DNA of 12,422 nt from a virus (lineage: Duplodnaviria > Heunggongvirae > Uroviricota > Caudoviricetes). A model generated the notes under the pieces. It saw nothing but the letters and a program-made list of their open reading frames with translations, made no database searches and was not told where the DNA came from. Each line of letters starts with the position of its first letter. The stretch's first letter is position 1. The translations under genes were made by a program, and so were the position numbers. Below are positions 393 through 9,534 of this stretch, in pieces. The stretch is from positions 1-12,422 of the IMG/VR virus record IMGVR_UViG_2619619131_000008; one strand, written 5' to 3'.

Positions 393-605
393 ATGTCAAA
401 TACACAGAAAATTATTAACACTGAAAAATATAACGAGTGGGTGAAAAAATTCTCTGAACAGATTTTTAAAATTACTGGCGACGAGAATGTGGCAAAAAAT
501 GAATTAGAACCGTGGACACCTGAAGGAAACGCACCAAATTATTGCTGGTGGGAGGTTGATCCGGTTGATGCTGCAAATGAAGCCATGAGTTACCACAACG
601 ATTAA
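393..605 (+). CDS. hypothetical 70-aa protein (AT-rich moron gene)
   Basis: ATG at 393 preceded by GGAGG (381-385) at good spacing. Visibly AT-rich sequence immediately after the IS1 end. No recognisable family. Confidence 0.5.
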   Translation: MSNTQKIINTEKYNEWVKKFSEQIFKITGDENVAKNELEPWTPEGNAPNYCWWEVDPVDAANEAMSYHND

Positions 606-615
606 TGTCGGGAGG

Positions 616-631
616 CCGCCCGAAAGGGCGG
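616..631 (+). other. intergenic GNRA-tetraloop stem-loop (CCGCCC-GAAA-GGGCGG), not followed by a U-tract
   Basis: Perfect 6-bp GC-rich stem with GAAA loop between the stop at 605 and the ATG at 638. No downstream T-run, so it is not a canonical intrinsic terminator. Confidence 0.5.
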
Positions 632-637
632 TAAGAA

Positions 638-856
638 ATGACTACATTATTCAGAAAAGAATATCCGCAAAAAAGTAGAGCGACAGAATTTTTGTTTCTC
701 ATTCTGTTTATCGTATTGATGATACCGATATCCCCTCTAATTTTTGTCTGGGCAATCGGGAAAATAATTGAGCCAGTTACTGAATTGTATACCGACGTTG
801 TATGGGCGTCGTTCAACACACTGCACAATAAAATTAATCCGTATAAGGAAAACTGA
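638..856 (+). CDS. hypothetical small membrane protein (72 aa, one predicted TM helix: FLFLILFIVLMIPISPLIFVWAIG)
   Basis: ORF in the same AT-rich island with a long hydrophobic segment. Weak RBS. Stop TGA 854-856 is directly followed by the next start at 858. Confidence 0.45.
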   Translation: MTTLFRKEYPQKSRATEFLFLILFIVLMIPISPLIFVWAIGKIIEPVTELYTDVVWASFNTLHNKINPYKEN

Positions 857-857
857 T

Positions 858-1121
858 ATGGCAACTTTGACAAAAAAAGAACGGGCATGGTTGAACGAAT
901 TACAGGAAGTTCTTGATCGCTGTCCATCACCGAAAAAAATTGGCTTTTACACCATTGGCGATAAAAGCATTTACCTGTATGACCTACGTCGCATGGATGA
1001 AATCATGGAGGCTCTTGATAATCGTTCGTCGATGGATTGGTGTGTTGCTGTTCATGATATGAATGCAGGGTTTGATGAAAAGATTTTGTTCCCCTCATCA
1101 GTTGAAAGCACTGCGGGTTAA
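858..1121 (+). CDS. hypothetical phage protein (87 aa)
   Basis: ATG at 858 preceded by AAGGAAAA. The longer ORF-track form (768..1121) would overlap the upstream gene and was not used. No family recognised. Confidence 0.55.
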   Translation: MATLTKKERAWLNELQEVLDRCPSPKKIGFYTIGDKSIYLYDLRRMDEIMEALDNRSSMDWCVAVHDMNAGFDEKILFPSSVESTAG

Positions 1122-1131
1122 GGAGTAACAC

Positions 1132-1299
1132 ATGACCACTATTACCAAAGAACGTATTGAATTGTTCATTAAAAACCCGCTTGAAAACGGGCTTACCCGT
1201 GGTGAACAAATGGAACTGGCACGGATTGCGCTGGCATCGCTGGAAGCAGAGCCGGTTGTGTTCTGGTTTGAAAAATATCAAGAAGGGGCTACGGCATGA
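1132..1299 (+). CDS. hypothetical small protein (55 aa), paralogous to the next gene
   Basis: Absent from the ORF track (<60 aa). ATG at 1132 with AGGAG at 1121-1125. Translation [55 protein letters not shown]. Stop overlaps the next start (ATGA at 1296-1299). Confidence 0.5.
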
Positions 1300-1541
1300 C
1301 GACTTTTACCAGAGAGCAGTTAATAGCTCACGCAGAGGAGACTATTGAAGCACAGAGACTGTGCATACCGGGCACAATCGACCATGACATCATCCGCACA
1401 TATAAGATGGATATTGCTGTTCTGGAAATCGCACTGGTATCGCTGGCAGCAGAGCCAGCCGGTAAATTGCATGAATACAAACCAGTGGGATATCAGCGTC
1501 TGGTCGATGAGTTAACCATGCTGGTAAAGCAGTTAACCTAG
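1296..1541 (+). CDS. hypothetical small protein (81 aa), paralogous to the previous gene
   Basis: Starts MTTFTREQ… (compare MTTITKER…) and contains [10 protein letters not shown] (compare [10 protein letters not shown]). Translationally coupled to the upstream ORF. Confidence 0.55.
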
Positions 1542-1636
1542 CAACTGAGGAAAGCGAAGCCAGACTGCAAATTACCGGATAAGGCGATGAGTTATCTGGA
1601 GCGGAACGGACTGATAAGCGTGGAGGATATTTTACG

Positions 1637-1720
1637 ATGACCTGGCCTGAAGCATTAACAACGGTAGGAATTGCGATGGCGGTGGCGCTGGTGGTGTATT
1701 CGATTTGCCGCTGGGGATAA
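1637..1720 (+). CDS. possible 27-aa hydrophobic peptide (MTWPEALTTVGIAMAVALVVYSICRWG), coupled to a 17-aa upstream ORF (1587-1640)
   Basis: GGAGG at 1622-1626 precedes the ATG at 1637. ATGA overlap with the tiny upstream ORF. Single hydrophobic helix. Below ORF-track size; speculative. Confidence 0.25.
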   Translation: MTWPEALTTVGIAMAVALVVYSICRWG

Positions 1721-1889
1721 AAACGGTTTGCGGGAAAAGGAGAGTTAAGTAGAATTGCAGCGGGTGCTTGAGGCTATCTGTCTCAGGCATGAACACCAAA
1801 AGGCAGATAGAGAAAAGCCCCAGTTAACATTACGCGTCCGGCAAGACGCTTAACATTAATCTGAGGCCATATCTATGCTCTACACACGT

Positions 1890-1918
1890 AGGTTAGCCTC
1901 TTACGTGCCGAAAGGCAA
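1890..1918 (-). promoter_or_regulatory. candidate Sok-like antisense promoter (minus strand: TTGCCT - 17 bp - TAACCT) directing transcription across the upstream in-frame ATG of the hok ORF
   Basis: Hexamers read from the reverse complement. Position and orientation match the canonical hok/sok layout. Not verified. Confidence 0.3.
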
Positions 1919-1931
1919 GGAGAAGCAGGCT

Positions 1932-2087
1932 ATGAAGCAGCAAAAGGCGATGCTAATCGCCCTGATCGTCATCTGTTTAACCGTCATTGTGACGGCACTG
2001 GTAACGAGGAAAGACCTCTGCGAGGTACGAATCCGAACCGGCCAGACGGAGGTCGCTGTCTTCACAGCTTACGAACCTGAGGAGTAA
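1932..2087 (+). CDS. hokD: Hok/Gef family type I toxin (51 aa), HokD/RelF-like
   Basis: Translation MKQQKAMLIALIVICLTVIVTALVTRKDLCEVRIRTGQTEVAVFTAYEPEE matches the Hok family signature (TM helix, conserved Cys, C-terminal periplasmic tail). AAGGAG at 1916-1921. An in-frame upstream ATG at 1875 could give a 70-aa form. Confidence 0.85.
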   Translation: MKQQKAMLIALIVICLTVIVTALVTRKDLCEVRIRTGQTEVAVFTAYEPEE

Positions 2088-2155
2088 GAGACCTGGCGGG
2101 GGAGAAATCCCTCGCCACCTCTGATGTGTCAGGCATCCTCAACGCACCCGCACTT

Positions 2156-2182
2156 AACCCGCTTCGGCGGGTTTTGTTTTTT
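2156..2182 (+). terminator. rho-independent terminator downstream of hok (AACCCGC-TTCG-GCGGGTT followed by a T-run)
   Basis: GC stem-loop followed by TTTGTTTTTT, seen directly. Confidence 0.6.
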
Positions 2183-4887: not shown

Positions 4888-5009
4888 ATGACTGAAATCG
4901 CGTCAGTACAGTAAACGCGCTGGTGGCGGTGAATACCTGTCTTTCAGCTTGCTGGCTTTTTCGACAAGAGTTATTGGTGTGTCACGTTAACCGGAAAAGG
5001 GAAAAAGAC

Positions 5010-5207
5010 ATGCTAAAACAGCAGGATATGACAGAAACCGCCAGAGTAGTGTTTAATGAATTAAGCGTTACCGAACCGGCGACAGTCGGGGAGATTGCAC
5101 AGAATACTTACCTTTCACGCGAACGCTGCCAGTTAATACTGACCCAGCTGGTTATGGCGGGTCTGGCAGACTATCAGTGCGGTTGTTACAGACGCCTTCA
5201 GTCCTGA
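5010..5207 (+). CDS. hypothetical 65-aa protein, possibly a small helix-turn-helix DNA-binding protein
   Basis: ATG at 5010 preceded by AAAAGGGAAAAAG. Segment TVGEIAQNTYLSRERCQLILTQLVMAGL resembles an HTH. Start chosen over the longer 4923 form. Confidence 0.45.
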   Translation: MLKQQDMTETARVVFNELSVTEPATVGEIAQNTYLSRERCQLILTQLVMAGLADYQCGCYRRLQS

Positions 5208-5220
5208 AGGCTTTTTATTT
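5193..5220 (+). terminator. rho-independent terminator (GCCTTCAG…CTGAAGGC + TTTTTATTT) overlapping the stop of the 65-aa gene
   Basis: Near-perfect 8-bp inverted repeat followed by a T-rich run. Confidence 0.5.
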
Positions 5221-5274
5221 GTGGTGAATGGGCGGCTGGTGGGGGGCGACACCTGTCAGTCCTTTGCTTATGTG

Positions 5275-5305
5275 TTGATGATAATTTACCTTTTGGGGCT
5301 ATAAT
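5275..5305 (+). promoter_or_regulatory. candidate sigma70 promoter for the AraC-family gene (-35 TTGATG, -10 TATAAT)
   Basis: Consensus TATAAT at 5300-5305. The -35 spacing is slightly long (about 19 bp), so uncertain. Confidence 0.35.
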
Positions 5306-5340
5306 TGAGCTAACCAATTGCTAATGAAAGTAAAATTATA

Positions 5341-6054
5341 ATGGCTGTTGTCTGTTCAGTTATCATGGTTTGCTCCCCAATTAATATTTTTCTTGAAAAG
5401 GATACGTTGTCACTTAAGCCAGGCTCAGTTGTTCTGGCCACCAAATGCATCAGGGAGCTTTTCCTTATGCATTATGGCAAAGTTAAAATTGTCGATATAA
5501 GCGAATCCGTCGTAAGTCAATATCTGGAAAGTCAGCATAAGCTGACGAGGACTCGTCTGACTGACATTCCGCTTTACCTGTTGCTGGAACCCAACAATCC
5601 TGCGTTGGCTGCGGCTTTAATTACCAGCCAGGGATTTTCCGGAGAGGCCACGGATATGTTTCTTATGATGGCCTGCCTGTCTCTGTTTGAAACAGATGAA
5701 CGGATGTCATTGTTTTTAAGTGGATGTTTATCCAGCATAAGTGCCAAAGTCAGGGCGATAATTCAGACAGATATATCAGCAAGCTGGACGCTTTGTGCGA
5801 TTGCTCTACAGTTGCATATGAGTGAGAGTTTGTTAAAGACAAAACTGAAAAATGAAGGGGGCATGTTCAGTCGCTTGTTGCTGGAAGAGCGGATGCGTGT
5901 TGCTGTAAATATGTTATGTTCCCGGCATGGATATGGACAGGCTATAGCAGAAAAATGCGGTTATTCAAGCAGGTCCTACTTTATTTCTGTATTTCACCGC
6001 TATTATGGCTTCCCGCCAGACAGATATGTATCCAGGCAAGGGCTTGATTATTGA
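5341..6054 (+). CDS. AraC/XylS-family transcriptional regulator (prophage-encoded, AppY/Psr/PatE-like class)
   Basis: 237 aa. C-terminal double-HTH signature of the AraC family (…AIAEKCGYSSRSYFISVFHRYYGFPPDRY…). N-terminus MAVVCSV… resembles prophage AppY-type regulators as recalled. Visibly AT-rich gene and upstream region. Alternative downstream starts are possible. Confidence 0.8.
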   Translation: MAVVCSVIMVCSPINIFLEKDTLSLKPGSVVLATKCIRELFLMHYGKVKIVDISESVVSQYLESQHKLTRTRLTDIPLYLLLEPNNPALAAALITSQGFSGEATDMFLMMACLSLFETDERMSLFLSGCLSSISAKVRAIIQTDISASWTLCAIALQLHMSESLLKTKLKNEGGMFSRLLLEERMRVAVNMLCSRHGYGQAIAEKCGYSSRSYFISVFHRYYGFPPDRYVSRQGLDY

Positions 6055-6082
6055 TTTTCATCTGATTATTATTTTTTGGCTC

Positions 6083-6158
6083 GGCCCTTTAGCTCAGTGG
6101 TGAGAGCGAGCGACTCATAATCGCCAGGTCGCTGGTTCAAATCCAGCAAGGGCCACCA
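6083..6158 (+). tRNA. ileZ: tRNA-Ile2 (anticodon CAU, lysidine-type; ileZ/ileX-like), with encoded CCA
   Basis: Cloverleaf readable by eye: GGCCCTT acceptor, D arm GCTCAGTGGTGAGAGC, anticodon loop CTCATAA, T arm GGTTCAAATCC, 3' CCA. Very similar to recalled E. coli ileX. Anticodon alone would also fit Met. Confidence 0.85.
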
Positions 6159-6165
6159 TCACATA

Positions 6166-6239
6166 CCGCCATTAGCTCATCAGGAAAGAGCGCCAGCCTT
6201 CGAAGCTGGTTGCGCGGAGTTCGGATCCCCGAAGGCGGT
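6166..6239 (+). tRNA. argN: tRNA-Arg-like (anticodon read as UCG; argN-like), with non-canonical stem pairs
   Basis: Acceptor CCGCCAT/AAGGCGG (one A-A mismatch), D arm GCTC…GAGC, anticodon stem-loop CCAGC-CTTCGAA-GCTGG, T arm CGGAG-TTCGGAT-CCCCG (one A-C mismatch). 3' end is TCA rather than CCA. Confidence 0.55.
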
Positions 6240-6255
6240 TCATTATCTGTATCCT

Positions 6256-6332
6256 GCGTTGTTAGCTCAGCCGGACAGAGCAATTGCCTTCTAAGCAATC
6301 GGTCACTGGTTCGAATCCAGTACAACGCGCCA
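6256..6332 (+). tRNA. argO: tRNA-Arg (anticodon UCU; argO/argU-like), with encoded CCA
   Basis: Acceptor GCGTTGT/ACAACGC, D arm GCTCAGCCGGACAGAGC, anticodon loop CTTCTAA, T arm CTGGTTCGAATCCAG, discriminator G + CCA. Confidence 0.85.
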
Positions 6333-6346
6333 GACTTATTTTTCCC

Positions 6347-6370
6347 GGCTCGCTTTTGCGGGCCTTTTTT
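6347..6370 (+). terminator. rho-independent terminator after the tRNA cluster (GGCTCGC-TTTT-GCGGGCC + TTTTTT)
   Basis: 7-bp stem with one G-U pair followed by a T6 run. Confidence 0.55.
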
Positions 6371-6502
6371 GTATCCGCGCCACGCCCGGCGCATATCAAC
6401 CACAGAGCCTTTCGGGGGTGAGCTTACGGAGTGGTCAGTGTGACTTTCTCTGTGGGCAGATCGCTCCCGGGCGTTGGCTCACCCACCCAAAGGAACGTCA
6501 CG

Positions 6503-6934
6503 ATGTTTGGTATTTTTGGTAAAAAAGCCCGCCGAGCGGCAGTGGAAATTAAAAAGTTTGAGAAACGTGATCTGGCACAGGCGGTTATTAATGCTGCCTA
6601 TCTGGTGGCCTATGCAGATGGTGAATGTGAGGCTTCAGAGAAAGCGAAGATCGAGCAGGTCTTGCGTAACCAGCCTGCGTTGTCCGCGTTTACGTCAGAA
6701 ATTAATGCGATTAGCGCAACCATTATCGGTCAGCTGGATACGAACTTTAAAATTGGTCGTCGAGCGGCGTTACGTGAGATCGAGGATGTGAAACACGATA
6801 CGCGTGAAGCGGAAGACGTGCTGGATGTGGCGGTGGCCATTGCCGAAGCAGACGGCGAAATAGAGCCGGAAGAGCGCAAGGTGCTGGAAGAGATTGCCGG
6901 TGTTCTGGGCCTTCGTCTGGAGAATCATCTGTGA
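6503..6934 (+). CDS. TerB-like domain protein (tellurite-resistance TerB / DjlA-N-like fold), 143 aa
   Basis: ATG at 6503 with AAGGAA 7 nt upstream. Two TerB-type acidic motifs (AYADGECEASEKAKIEQVL and AEADGEIEPEERKVLEEIAGVLGL). The earlier GTG at 6431 lacks an RBS. Confidence 0.65.
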   Translation: MFGIFGKKARRAAVEIKKFEKRDLAQAVINAAYLVAYADGECEASEKAKIEQVLRNQPALSAFTSEINAISATIIGQLDTNFKIGRRAALREIEDVKHDTREAEDVLDVAVAIAEADGEIEPEERKVLEEIAGVLGLRLENHL

Positions 6935-6942
6935 CGGTAAAA

Positions 6943-7104
6943 ATGCGTCTGGCTGTGGTTGCGCTCCTGCTGTTTCTGGTAGTGATGGTGGTGATGGTGG
7001 ACTTCAGCAGCCGGATAATGTCAGTGCTGGCTGACGGTGTGCTGGTGGCGGGTGTGGTGGTTGTTGCTTTCCCGTTGCTGAAAAAGAAAGCATCAGGCGA
7101 TTAG
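6943..7104 (+). CDS. possible small hydrophobic membrane peptide (53 aa: MRLAVVALLLFLVVMVVMVDFSSRIMSVLADGVLVAGVVVVAFPLLKKKASGD)
   Basis: Absent from the ORF track (<60 aa). Starts 9 nt after the TerB-like stop. Two hydrophobic segments and a KKK tail. Weak RBS; contains a 9-bp tandem repeat GTGATGGTG x2. Confidence 0.35.
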   Translation: MRLAVVALLLFLVVMVVMVDFSSRIMSVLADGVLVAGVVVVAFPLLKKKASGD

Positions 7105-7344
7105 CAGGGTATCAGTTACCCGTTGAAATTTTTAAATACCTCACAATTCAGGCGGTTGACTGTTGTCTGGTTTGCGGGGAGTTTGTTAAAAGAAACTGGC
7201 ATGGTGAATCCCCCTGTGCGGAGGGGCAATCAGCAACTGGTGTTTTGTCACCGACCCTTATCCTTTCTGTGCGGGTTCAGGTGCTGATACTGAACTCACC
7301 GGGAGGCACCCGGCACCATGCAAAATTGTCTACACTACCACTGT

Positions 7345-7373
7345 AAAAAGCCCCTCTCCGGAGGGGCTTTTCT
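7345..7373 (+). terminator. strong intrinsic terminator (AGCCCCTC-TCCG-GAGGGGCT + TTTCT), A-run upstream makes it potentially bidirectional
   Basis: Perfect 8-bp GC-rich stem with tetraloop, flanked by AAAAA and TTTT. Confidence 0.65.
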
Positions 7374-7378
7374 ATGGG

Positions 7379-7407
7379 CAAAAAAAAGCCCGCAGTGAGT
7401 GGCGGGC
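7379..7407 (-). terminator. intrinsic terminator oriented for the minus strand (GCCCGC…GCGGGC preceded on + by A8, i.e. followed by U8 on minus-strand RNA)
   Basis: 6-bp GC stem with 8-nt loop. The poly-A on the + strand corresponds to poly-U on a leftward transcript. Confidence 0.45.
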
Positions 7408-7471
7408 GGGGCGCATGAATATACATCAGGTATTTTTATTATCGTGTTCTGATTTTTACCATCTGTGATAA

Positions 7472-7502
7472 GGCTGCGCAACTGCGCGGCCTTTTTCGTT
7501 TT
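7472..7502 (+). terminator. intrinsic terminator (GGCTGCGC-AACT-GCGCGGCC + TTTTTCGTTTT)
   Basis: 8-bp stem with one G-U pair followed by a T-rich run, about 90 bp upstream of the nanS-p-like start. Confidence 0.55.
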
Positions 7503-7590
7503 GCGGGCTGCGGTTCTCCTCTTTTGATTCTCCGTGTAGCCGGACCGTGGCCCGCAACTGTTGAGGAAAATCCCGGAAAGGGGAGGAATA

Positions 7591-9534
7591 ATGGCATTTA
7601 AACACTATGACGTGGTCAGGGCGGCGTCGCCGTCAGACCTTGCGGAGCGACTGACACAAAAACTGAAGGAAGGCTGGCAGCCGTTTGGCAGTCCTGTGGC
7701 TATCACGCCTTATACACTGATGCAGGCCATTGCCGCAGAGGGTGATGTGACCACGCCTGTGGTTGTGCCCGACACAGGGGCTGGTGGCTCTCCGGGAGTG
7801 GCTACCACTGAACCGGAGTATTACTACGTTATTCCCCTGGCCGGGCAGTCGAACGGTATGGCCTATGGTGAGGGGCTTCCTCTGCCGGAGACCTATGATC
7901 GCCCTGACTCCCGTATTAAGCAGCTGGCCCGTCGCAGCACTGTGACGCCGGGTGGTGATACCTGTGCATACAATGACGTTATTCCGGCAGACCACTGTCT
8001 GCATGATGTTCAGGACATGAGCGCACTTAACCATCCTCATGCAGACCTGAGTAAGGGCCAGTACGGGACTGTCGGTCAGGGGCTGCATATTGCCAAAAAA
8101 CTTCTGCCTTATATCCCGCAGAATGCCGGGATTCTTCTGGTGCCCTGTTGCCGTGGCGGGTCTGGTTTAACCGTGGGTAATGACGGCACGTTCAGCGAAA
8201 CGTCTGGCGCATCGGCAAATTCAGCCCGCTGGGGAGTGGGTAAACCGCTGTATCAGGATTTTCTCTTCCGTACAAAAGCGGCGCTGTCGAAGAACCCGAA
8301 AAACAGGCTTCTGGCCGTGGTATGGATGCAGGGGGAAAATGATCTTGCGGACGGCAGTCAGCAGCACAGCGGCCTGTTTACCACTATGGTGCAGCAGTTC
8401 AGGGCTGATATGGCTGCATATTCTGCACAGTGTGTTGGCGGAAGTGCTGGCTCGGTGCCGTGGATTTGTGGTGACACCACGTATTACTGGAAGAATCTTA
8501 ACGCCGATAAATATGAGGCGGTATATGGCGGTTACAAGGGCAGGGAAGCACAGAATATTTTCTTTGTACCGTTCCTGACGGATGAGAATGGACAGAGCAC
8601 GCCAACGAATGCTCCGGCGGAAGACCCGGATATTGTGGCTGTCGGGTATTACGGTGCAGCATCCCGAACCCAGGGCAGTTTTGTTTCGACACAGCGTGAC
8701 AGCCATTTCAGCTCATGGGCACGCAGGGGCGTCATTTCAGACCGTCTGGCCTCAGCTATTATGCTCCATGCAGGGCGCACGGCTGAATTGATGCGCGGGC
8801 AGACCGTGACACCACCGGATGAGAAGCCGTCACCTGATACACCATCAAAACCGTCCACGCCACCCGCAGACACCACGACGATGAGTACGCTATTTGCTTA
8901 CCGGGCATCTGAGTCTGAAGGACGGTTGACACCACAGGGTTGGGCTGCTGGAGGTGGCAAGGCTCAAATCGTGGATGATGCCGGAGCCAGCGGGGGTAAG
9001 GCAATGAAACTGACCAAGGAAACAGGAAGAGCCCCCTGGTACCTTGAGCATGATGCTGGTAATGGTGCGGACCTGCTGGGTAAAGGTGGTCTTGTCAGTT
9101 GTCGTTTTAAACTCGATGGCGCGCTTACGGCTAATCAGTACGCACTGGCGCTGTACTGGCCGGTTTCTTCATTGCCTCAGGGTGTCACACTGGAAGGTAA
9201 TGCCGGTAACAATCTGCTGGCGTCGTTTTACGTACAGAGCGATGCCACAGACCTCAACGTGATGTACCACAAGGGTAACGCTGACCAGAACACGAAGCTG
9301 GGGTCATTCGGCGCATTTAATAACGAATGGCATACGCTGGGCTTCCGTTTTGCCGGTAATAACAGTATTCAGGTGACGCCGGTGATTGATGGTCAGGATG
9401 GTGCACCGTTCATGCTGTCGCAGTCTCCGGTAGGTTCTTTTGCGGCAGACAAATTACGTGTAACGGATATCACAAAAGCGGCGACGTATACGGTGCTGAT
9501 TGAAAGTATAACAGTGGAAGTGAATAACCCGTAA
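7591..9534 (+). CDS. nanS: NanS-p-like prophage 9-O-acetyl sialic acid esterase (N-terminal DUF1737, SGNH/SASA esterase core with GQSN motif, C-terminal beta-rich domain)
   Basis: 647 aa from ATG 7591 (AAGGGGAGGA RBS). N-terminus MAFKHYDVVRAASPSDLAERL… is DUF1737-like. IPLAGQSNGMAYGEG carries the SGNH catalytic Ser block. Pro/Ser/Thr-rich linker (TPPDEKPSPDTPSKPSTPP). Same position as yjhS/nanS-p downstream of the toxin site in Stx phages. Confidence 0.8.
   Translation: MAFKHYDVVRAASPSDLAERLTQKLKEGWQPFGSPVAITPYTLMQAIAAEGDVTTPVVVPDTGAGGSPGVATTEPEYYYVIPLAGQSNGMAYGEGLPLPETYDRPDSRIKQLARRSTVTPGGDTCAYNDVIPADHCLHDVQDMSALNHPHADLSKGQYGTVGQGLHIAKKLLPYIPQNAGILLVPCCRGGSGLTVGNDGTFSETSGASANSARWGVGKPLYQDFLFRTKAALSKNPKNRLLAVVWMQGENDLADGSQQHSGLFTTMVQQFRADMAAYSAQCVGGSAGSVPWICGDTTYYWKNLNADKYEAVYGGYKGREAQNIFFVPFLTDENGQSTPTNAPAEDPDIVAVGYYGAASRTQGSFVSTQRDSHFSSWARRGVISDRLASAIMLHAGRTAELMRGQTVTPPDEKPSPDTPSKPSTPPADTTTMSTLFAYRASESEGRLTPQGWAAGGGKAQIVDDAGASGGKAMKLTKETGRAPWYLEHDAGNGADLLGKGGLVSCRFKLDGALTANQYALALYWPVSSLPQGVTLEGNAGNNLLASFYVQSDATDLNVMYHKGNADQNTKLGSFGAFNNEWHTLGFRFAGNNSIQVTPVIDGQDGAPFMLSQSPVGSFAADKLRVTDITKAATYTVLIESITVEVNNP

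Follow-up and report, generated by a model that had tools for sequence, protein, structure and literature searches.

The window analysed here is a whole 12,422-nucleotide (nt) stretch, the Caudoviricetes record IMGVR_UViG_2619619131_000008, and it is part of an Escherichia coli lambdoid prophage. Two small open reading frames (ORFs), encoding 55 and 81 amino acids (aa) and called here gene 1 and gene 2, overlap one another upstream of a hok toxin gene. An initial annotation, made from the sequence alone, had described them as a translationally coupled pair that arose by recent tandem duplication of a small phage gene. Both ORFs and their ATGA overlap lie exactly where that annotation had placed them, and the elements of the pair are as follows.

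1132-1299, plus strand: 55-aa ORF (gene 1), beginning MTTITKER, of the WP_000207997.1 type; an N-module-only chimera with a foreign 14-residue tail
1132-1253, plus strand: N-module N1, the start of the 55-aa ORF
1252-1299, plus strand: HNH-derived 3′ tail, nucleotide-identical to the end of the 121-aa HNH gene in STEC711
1283-1288, plus strand: AAGGGG, a Shine-Dalgarno-like site 5′ of the 81-aa ORF
1296-1299, plus strand: ATGA stop/start overlap of the 55-aa and 81-aa ORFs
1296-1541, plus strand: 81-aa ORF (gene 2), beginning MTTFTREQ; a nonsense-truncated allele of the 114-aa gene WP_000206826.1

A shared N-terminal module

The common N-terminus and internal IALxSLxAEP motif of the two proteins, to which the initial annotation had drawn attention, constitute a homologous module that exceeds chance expectation, because three kinds of result agree. 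BLASTP aligns residues 1-41 of the 55-aa protein with residues 1-54 of the 81-aa protein with 18 identities in 54 positions, two gaps and E=4e-6 (for a single comparison). The Smith-Waterman score of 56 compares with a mean of 22 for shuffled sequences (standard deviation 3.9, maximum 45), and none of 5,000 shuffles equals or exceeds the observed value. Furthermore, both proteins match the same four PHROG profiles at equal profile positions (phrog_60, 116-165 and 116-169 of 461; phrog_660, 3-60/61; phrog_3323, from 1; phrog_5117, 1-50). At the DNA level the likeness is patchy, comprising the first ~20 nt and a 29-nt stretch that encodes IAL(A/V)SL(E/A)AEP, and the core between these conserved ends is diverged and differs in length by 13 codons.

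These four PHROGs (60, 660, 3323 and 5117) contain a family whose members are called 'Eaa' in some records. Its architecture consists of a constant N-module, a variable middle that is sometimes absent and a constant C-module. The N-module spans about 40-55 aa, starting with M-T-T-x-T-K/R-E and ending with (I/V)ALASLEAEP, and the C-module spans about 45 aa with the pattern ELTMLVKQL..QLKKAKPDCKLPDKAMDYLxRNGLISVEDxLR. The 114-aa gene of which gene 2 is an allele is the minimal member that carries both modules. Below, the N-modules of genes 1 and 2 are called N1 and N2.

Gene 1 as an in-frame chimera

The sequence comparisons indicate that the 55-aa ORF is a chimera, in which residues 1-41 are an Eaa-type N-module and residues 42-55 are the C-terminal tail of an HNH endonuclease. 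When positions 1132-1640 were compared by megablast with complete genomes, coverage was split at query nt 118-127. The left part, from query nt 1 to about 125, matches the 5′ ends of genes annotated as hypothetical, Eaa, DUF551, DUF550 or dATP/dGTP pyrophosphohydrolase, and query nt 118-509 recur as an 'HNH endonuclease' gene followed by a 'hypothetical protein' gene.

Each putative parent is found in its own arrangement. In E. coli O157:H7 strain 8368, the 87-aa gene that also precedes the pair in the window is followed by a family member (Eaa-167) that opens with an N1-type module, and window 1132-1258 (query nt 1-127) has 97.6% DNA identity to the start of that gene. In STEC711, the 121-aa HNH endonuclease gene precedes the 114-aa gene, and its stop overlaps the 114-aa start in ATGA; the same gene order occurs in Stx2a phages. 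In STEC711, ArgO145 and the Stx2a phages, the gene for this HNH protein (WP_001229294.1) is typically the next one upstream of the 114-aa gene, and it is the source of the final 14 codons of the 55-aa ORF and of its ATGA junction. A four-way DNA alignment resolves the transition: the window tracks O157:H7 8368 up to GAGCC, with two mismatches inside the ORF, and then matches STEC711 exactly from CCGGTTG through ATGA into gene 2. The crossover is thereby placed between 1251 and 1254, at the CC shared by GAGCC and GGTTG. On the basis of this alignment, the 55-aa ORF is N1 joined to the last 14 HNH codons in the HNH frame.

Only the tail of the HNH gene is involved. The catalytic part (CAYCG...HADH...CHPCN) is absent from the 55-aa ORF, which, unlike its putative donor, is not an HNH endonuclease; a weak match to PHROG 2118 (E=0.002) covers residues 31-54 only. 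N1 itself and the start of P0090, an 'Eaa protein' of 197 aa from Salmonella, differ at two of 41 residues, and elsewhere it is fused to more than ten unrelated downstream sequences, mostly right after EAEP(V). The chimeric junction is present in roughly 330 complete genomes, with the whole pair in 324. The HNH-type junction was counted with a 55-mer in at least 8 complete genomes, which is an underestimate because exact 28-mers were required and the HNH gene is variable. The intact pair is also carried by an isolated phage, vB_EcoS-689R5, where it is followed by a frameshifted small-ORF copy and then hok, and where gene 1 is labelled 'EaA protein' (URC08896.1).

The origin of the tail bears on the translational coupling that the initial annotation had proposed for the two genes. 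The arrangement does fit coupling, but the ATGA overlap is simply inherited from the junction between the HNH and 114-aa genes.

Two related alleles were noted. One that reads LEADPVVFW across the junction (L016) was considered as an independent crossover with the HNH gene and set aside, since its codon GAC is neither the GAG of the window nor the GAT of the HNH gene; a point change within that same junction is the simplest account. In E. coli O157:H7 strain 8368 (L009, 2501-2986), the 167-aa member that represents the N1-type donor is split by a TAT-to-TAG nonsense change into annotated ORFs of 53 and 81 aa, an independent premature amber codon in the same family.

Gene 2 as a nonsense allele

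The 81-aa ORF is, as judged from its alignment with intact homologues, a nonsense allele of the 114-aa gene (WP_000206826.1). Its 3′ end and the sequence beyond it are organized as follows.

1539-1541, plus strand: premature TAG, with A for G at 1540, converting TGG to TAG (W82stop)
1542-1640, plus strand: untranslated remainder of the 114-aa gene, containing the best-conserved stretch of the C-module, QLRKAKPDCKLPDKAMSYLERNGLISVEDILR; identical to the intact allele

E. coli strain E7476, in which the gene encodes 114 aa, differs from the window at only one of 481 aligned columns, position 1540. No part of the family is better conserved than the 33 residues that are lost, QL(K/R)KAKPDCKLPDKAMxYLxRNGLISVEDxLR, and the 81-aa ORF retains the N2 hairpin and the first part of helix 3 of the predicted structure described below. 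A DUF551 protein of 198 aa (P0066) opens with virtually the same sequence as N2.

The intact allele is the common one. A 55-mer centred on the site and matched by 28-mers detected the TGG allele in 553 of 5,426 complete E. coli genomes and the TAG allele in none of the 5,426. A sequencing or assembly error at 1539-1541, such that the window truly encodes the 114-aa protein, would explain both this distribution and the single-base difference from the common allele. This explanation is nonetheless highly unlikely, given that at least 15 contigs, obtained from independent ENA, Logan and NCBI samples, encode the exact 81-aa product, in two upstream contexts: one TAG contig shares the IS1...hok context of the window, and two carry a 171-aa gene in place of the 55-aa ORF. 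On these two (L004, 231-746; L007, 252-767), the 171-aa gene (MALTHRELCQIAYRFLKRNGF...) again overlaps the TAG allele in ATGA, and its last ~20 nt before the ATGA resemble those in the window.

Collapse of the pair through its own repeats

The conserved 3′ ends of N1 and N2 form a direct repeat within the pair.

1225-1253, plus strand: direct repeat copy 1, ATTGCGCTGGCATCGCTGGAAGCAGAGCC
1428-1456, plus strand: direct repeat copy 2, ATCGCACTGGTATCGCTGGCAGCAGAGCC, identical to copy 1 at 25 of 29 positions

A natural 101-aa relative (P0031) runs through N1 as far as IALASL and continues with AAEPAGKL... of gene 2. It lies in the same neighbourhood from the 87-aa gene to hok, its flanks match the window except at the TAG/TGG site, and precisely 203 bp are missing from it between the two ATCGCTGG octamers (1236-1243 and 1439-1446). 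The exact spacing of this deletion indicates that the tandem pair collapses through recombination of its own 29-bp repeats with each other. A 55-mer search of complete genomes for the 101-aa junction gave no full-length exact match; with this unspecific query, the best matches were other alleles or the pair in two pieces. The locus offers a clean, base-resolved example of how a short in-frame chimeric ORF originates, and also of how 8-29 bp of shared sequence allow tandem family members to collapse.

Other loci carry further arrangements of the same parts. One locus (L019, 1550-2506) holds three consecutive N-module genes of 149, 54 and 114 aa, and a 186-aa protein (P0276) contains two N-modules in a single polypeptide; tandem N-modules therefore recur in the family. 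A 120-aa protein (P0017) is an apparent recombinant between a start of the 87-aa type (MATLTKEER) and the 114-aa gene.

A hydrophobic small ORF behind the C-module

Immediately beyond the 114-aa reading frame lies a further small ORF that is related to the pair by position.

1637-1720, plus strand: 27-aa hydrophobic ORF, MTWPEALTTVGIAMAVALVVYSICRWG

An ATGA at 1637-1640 combines its start codon with the stop codon of the intact 114-aa gene, and the ORF is preceded by a GGAGG of its own at 1622-1626. The ORF is kept behind the C-module at loci where the genes on the 3′ side differ (hok, ParDE or DUF4222), and the copy on contig L004 carries five synonymous changes and one non-synonymous change. 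This conservation with mostly synonymous changes suggests that the ORF encodes a real small membrane protein. None of the RefSeq records inspected annotates it, and phage vB_EcoS-689R5 has a frameshifted copy. The absence from RefSeq annotation of a conserved, probable membrane ORF coupled to the C-module represents an annotation gap. In the window, the premature stop of gene 2 leaves 96 nt between the end of translation and the 27-aa ORF; the ATGA coupling is therefore likely to be lost there, while the ORF keeps its own GGAGG.

A large family of modular early phage proteins

A profile built from 36 members, with 103 positions spanning the N- and C-modules, was used to assess the extent of the family. 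The search matched 1,749 representatives of 50%-identity clusters at E ≤ 1e-3 (299 at E ≤ 1e-10), so that the family comprises at least 1,749 clusters at this level of identity. The best 150 representatives range from 55 to 395 aa and carry both modules, the N-module only or the C-module only; forms with a single module are common. Two word-indexed searches yielded 238 and 134 homologues. Both window ORFs carry the N-module as judged by their N-terminal PHROG positions, by alignment with 36-48 members and by the profile search. Neither carries the C-module, in that the 55-aa ORF has the HNH tail at this place and the 81-aa ORF ends before most of it, with the remainder still encoded behind the TAG; the intact 114-aa allele does carry it (phrog_660, 145-193). 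Members reside in early accessory regions of lambdoid and P22-like prophages, as does the pair in the window, and relatives also occur in the ea region beside int.

Known domains are rare in the family. A Pfam domain is present in only 9 of 126 representatives (DUF551 in five, Ead_Ea22 in two, dATP-dGTP_PPHyd in one and DUF5490 in one), and neither the N-module nor the C-module has a Pfam or NCBIfam model. Pfam, NCBIfam and PADLOC scans of both ORFs, the 114-aa allele and the neighbouring genes returned nothing relevant. Specifically, there was no NCBIfam or PADLOC match to toxin, antitoxin or defence models, and the lone Pfam match was a sub-threshold one to TPR_ANAPC2 (E=0.14). Neither ORF nor the 114-aa allele matches Ead_Ea22 (PF13935) at E ≤ 1, and neither ORF matches DUF551 (PF04448), although some longer relatives carry that domain.

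An AlphaFold2 (AF2) model of the 114-aa protein, computed from a 48-sequence alignment, has a mean predicted local distance difference test score (pLDDT) of 79 and a predicted template modelling score (pTM) of 0.43. The N-module is predicted to form a two-helix hairpin (helices 6-26 and 30-51; block pLDDT 89-95), and the C-module is modelled as helices 64-87, 95-103 and 109-113 at pLDDT 48-84, with the last of these at about 48. A Foldseek comparison of the model with PDB returned generic helical hairpins only (best E=0.73), and a profile of the 48 members compared with PDB sequences returned designed coiled coils only, at E>1. For a natural frameshift fusion of the 55-aa and 114-aa proteins (P0001), the AF2 model has a mean pLDDT of 54.7, too low to be informative on pairing between the two hairpins; its first module has no alignment depth, with MAFFT placing N-only homologues on the second module.

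Among the closest known counterparts are the 'Eaa' proteins of Salmonella and E. coli lambdoid and P22-like phages. They have the same N-module as the window genes, the C-module of the intact 114-aa gene and a location in the early operon. Compared with them, the window genes are the shortest forms, one being an N-module with a foreign tail and the other a middle-less N+C protein cut by a stop codon. Another full family member is gp45 of N15 (139 aa), in which a middle separates an N-module (MITITKEW...KLASLAVD) from a C-module, ELTMLVKRLAYSLRHAKPDSKLPDDAMSYLSGKGLIRIEDILR; like the intact 114-aa gene, its gene has an ATGA stop/start overlap with the gene that follows. However, the downstream gp45.1 (18 aa) is unrelated to the 27-aa hydrophobic ORF, and N15, as a linear plasmid prophage, is a different type of phage.

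The Ead/Ea22 proteins of the lambda exo-xis region (PF13935) resemble the Eaa-type family in architecture and evolution, and they occur in the same prophages, often beside family members. The Ea22 family is described as mosaic, combining a common N-terminal segment and coiled coil with swapped, unrelated C-terminal domains that include DUF551 (PMC10834534). It differs in that no sequence match links it to the window ORFs, and in that a pro-lysogenic role has been reported for Ea22 and its C-terminal domain has been solved, with nothing comparable for the Eaa-type family. DUF551 proteins such as YfdS of CPS-53 are related to the family through a shared part, since DUF551 forms the middle or C-terminal part of some members; the window ORFs have no DUF551, and the domain is in just 5 of the 126 representatives. 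Among DUF551 proteins, a phenotype has been reported for YfdS alone (PMC4776307). In the literature searched, no functional study of the Eaa-type family was found, the papers retrieved being those on Ea22 and YfdS and a Gifsy-1 paper with a brief mention of 'an eaa homologue'. RefSeq already lists the 55-aa product and the full-length 114-aa allele as hypothetical proteins, which for the window matters little; the very large family, with neither a Pfam or NCBIfam model nor an assigned function, is a reasonable target for family definition and a functional screen.

Origin and possible function of the pair

We propose that the pair was probably produced by lambdoid mosaic recombination within this large, modular family of accessory early genes, with gene 1 a chimera and gene 2 a nonsense allele. 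In this model, a crossover at the CC/GTTG microhomology would have joined the 5′ end of an N1-type member in frame to the last 14 HNH codons, preserving the stop/start overlap of the HNH gene with gene 2, and a TGG-to-TAG change would have cut gene 2 from 114 to 81 aa and removed most of the C-module. The genes are presumably transcribed as part of an early rightward operon at 393-1720. The N-module may act at the protein level as a docking or oligomerization hairpin placed before varied effector parts, with the C-module as a second constant part. Because the coding ends of the modules are conserved, they may also serve as crossover points that give rise to new combinations. Such a role fits PMC2327257 and PMC3945230, which address homeologous or relaxed homologous recombination as a way in which temperate phages become mosaic; the title of the former credits the lambda Red proteins with efficient recombination between diverged sequences. 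In the window, the product of gene 1 would be limited to a hairpin with a foreign tail, and that of gene 2 to a hairpin plus part of one helix. Given the nonsense codon in gene 2 and the IS1 element just upstream, we lean towards the view that the pair is functionally degraded in this prophage.

Several observations weigh against this model. N-only ORFs that end in the HNH tail have three different N-module cores; besides that of the window, these are in proteins of 54 aa (P0230) and 61 aa (P0240), and identity to the window resumes at GCACGGATTGCGCTGGCATCG. These variants are found in two prophage regions, either 5′ of the 114-aa gene in the nin-like region or 5′ of a 271-aa DUF551 gene in the ea region beside int. 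The persistence of such an ORF in about 330 complete genomes could reflect selection, more than a scar. Likewise, the TAG allele lies behind two different upstream genes, the 55-aa ORF and the 171-aa gene, and from these two contexts it follows that the allele either has been long-lived enough to recombine or arose twice; it may be tolerated or even useful. Lastly, the docking or oligomerization role of the hairpin is suggested by a model of the monomer only.

The explanation given by the initial annotation, in which one small phage gene was recently duplicated in tandem and the copies then diverged, would account for the adjacency, the common orientation, and the shared N-terminus and IALxSLxAEP motif. 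It is very improbable all the same. The two modules are just 33% identical as proteins, with two gaps, and their DNA identity is restricted to both module ends; each has much closer relatives elsewhere, at 93-100% identity and joined to other genes. Tandem duplicates should be mutual closest relatives with high nucleotide identity over their full length, which genes 1 and 2 are not. In addition, gene 1 matches the 3′ end of the HNH endonuclease gene without a difference from its tail through the ATGA junction, and both parental arrangements exist separately (in O157:H7, and in STEC711 and Stx2a phages). The initial annotation had held that an obvious pseudogene among the two copies would count against its claim, and this is partly what is found, the second gene being a nonsense allele and the first an N-module-only fragment. 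As far as sequence comparison can tell, N1 and N2 are distinct, old alleles, and the locus is a case of ordinary lambdoid-phage mosaicism instead of recent duplication.

Two further explanations attribute a purpose to the short ORFs or to their ends. The pair could be a functional two-gene unit, in which a selected 55-aa N-only hairpin pairs with the N-hairpin of the downstream member and modulates it as a decoy, dominant-negative or assembly partner, at a stoichiometry set by translational coupling. The recurrence of the same tail and ATGA with three N cores, two downstream genes and two prophage regions favours this idea, as do the presence of the window's version in about 330 complete genomes and an isolated phage and the existence of tandem N-module genes and even of two N-modules per polypeptide (P0276). 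However, hitch-hiking of the segment from the HNH tail through ATGA to the N2 start, with the upstream core swapped through recombination in an identical coding stretch, explains the recurrence equally well; the pair readily collapses into one gene, and many relatives of gene 2 have no N-only partner. We consider a two-gene unit of this kind unlikely, in any of the three roles. It is rather less likely still that the conserved module ends are kept mainly as DNA homology arms for exchange of middle cassettes, with the short proteins as by-products. Breakpoints do fall within or beside conserved stretches: N1 junctions lie mostly right after EAEP(V), the crossover in P0031 is inside the IALxSL coding repeat, identity after N-core swaps resumes at GCACGGATTGCGCTGGCATCG, and P0017 joins a 5′ end of the 87-aa type to the start of the 114-aa gene. 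PMC2327257 and PMC3945230 address homeologous or relaxed recombination in temperate-phage mosaicism. Yet the conservation of the motifs as protein across alleles that differ at synonymous sites and the confident AF2 fold of the N-module argue for a protein function, and selection for folded products would equally leave breakpoints at domain borders.

Beyond the mosaic model that we prefer, a broader and doubtful proposition is that the Eaa-type family is a polymorphic effector system of temperate enterobacterial phages. If it were, a fixed scaffold, doubling as recombination arms, would consist of the N-hairpin, the C-module and the coupled 27-aa membrane peptide, the hypervariable N-cores and middle 'warheads' would be shuffled under arms-race selection, and free-standing N-only ORFs of the 55-aa type would be modulators or decoys of the full-length proteins. 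No description of such a polymorphic-effector architecture was found in the literature searched.

Genomic context of the pair

The pair belongs to a run of tightly packed small genes on the same strand at 393-1720; its other genes on the 5′ side of the pair, and the hok/sok features beyond it, are the following.

393-605, plus strand: 70-aa ORF, the first gene of the block
638-856, plus strand: DUF4014 gene
858-1121, plus strand: 87-aa ORF of the WP_000224233.1 type (PHROG 1714, function unknown), the left neighbour of the pair
1762-1937: sok (Rfam, 117 bits)
1932-2087: HokD-type toxin, within a 70-aa ORF at 1875-2087
2156-2173: intrinsic terminator behind hok

The window starts within an IS1 copy that has its 3′ end at 327 (InsB C-terminus, 46-312). 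Relative to E7476, which is 99.8% identical to window 600-2182, this IS1 is inserted 40 bp 3′ of the stop of a DUF977 gene and 65 bp 5′ of the 70-aa ORF, and the identical IS1 junction is found in a metagenome contig (L003) that also has the TAG allele. In E7476, the block is preceded by racR/ydaS/ydaT-type immunity genes, replication genes and DUF977. On the other side, hok is followed by DUF968, RusA, an antiterminator Q homologue, cargo that includes three transfer RNAs (tRNAs) and STnc100, and a lysis cassette. The pair therefore sits between replication genes/DUF977 and hok/sok, DUF968, RusA and Q, in the accessory region of a lambdoid prophage; the initial annotation had placed it where lambdoid phages carry toxin-antitoxin and anti-defence cargo.

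The upstream 87-aa ORF, which had been described as unrecognized, is real, and its only match is to PHROG 1714, with none in Pfam or NCBIfam. Its TAA stop (1119-1121) overlaps the Shine-Dalgarno sequence AAGGAG (1120-1125) of the 55-aa ORF. Promoter-like and terminator-like sites in 300-2400 show no excess over shuffled sequence. A terminator-like hairpin at 1239-1256 and an antisense 92-aa ORF at 1003-1281 were dismissed, neither being above chance expectation.

Four consecutive genes of the block (starts at 638, 858, 1132 and 1296) begin with near-identical N-terminal peptides: MTTLFRKE in the DUF4014 protein, MATLTKKE in the 87-aa protein, MTTITKER in the 55-aa protein and MTTFTREQ in the 81/114-aa protein. 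This likeness may stem from recombination, from a preference in translation initiation or from chance.

A separate cargo block at 4923-9534, on the 3′ side of the Q homologue, begins with a 94-aa ORF and contains the following features.

5341-6054: unannotated 237-aa ORF
6083-6332: tRNA-Met/Arg/Arg
6431-6934: unannotated 167-aa ORF
7170-7379: small RNA STnc100
7561-9534: 657-aa ORF, at the position where E7476 annotates a DUF6645 protein

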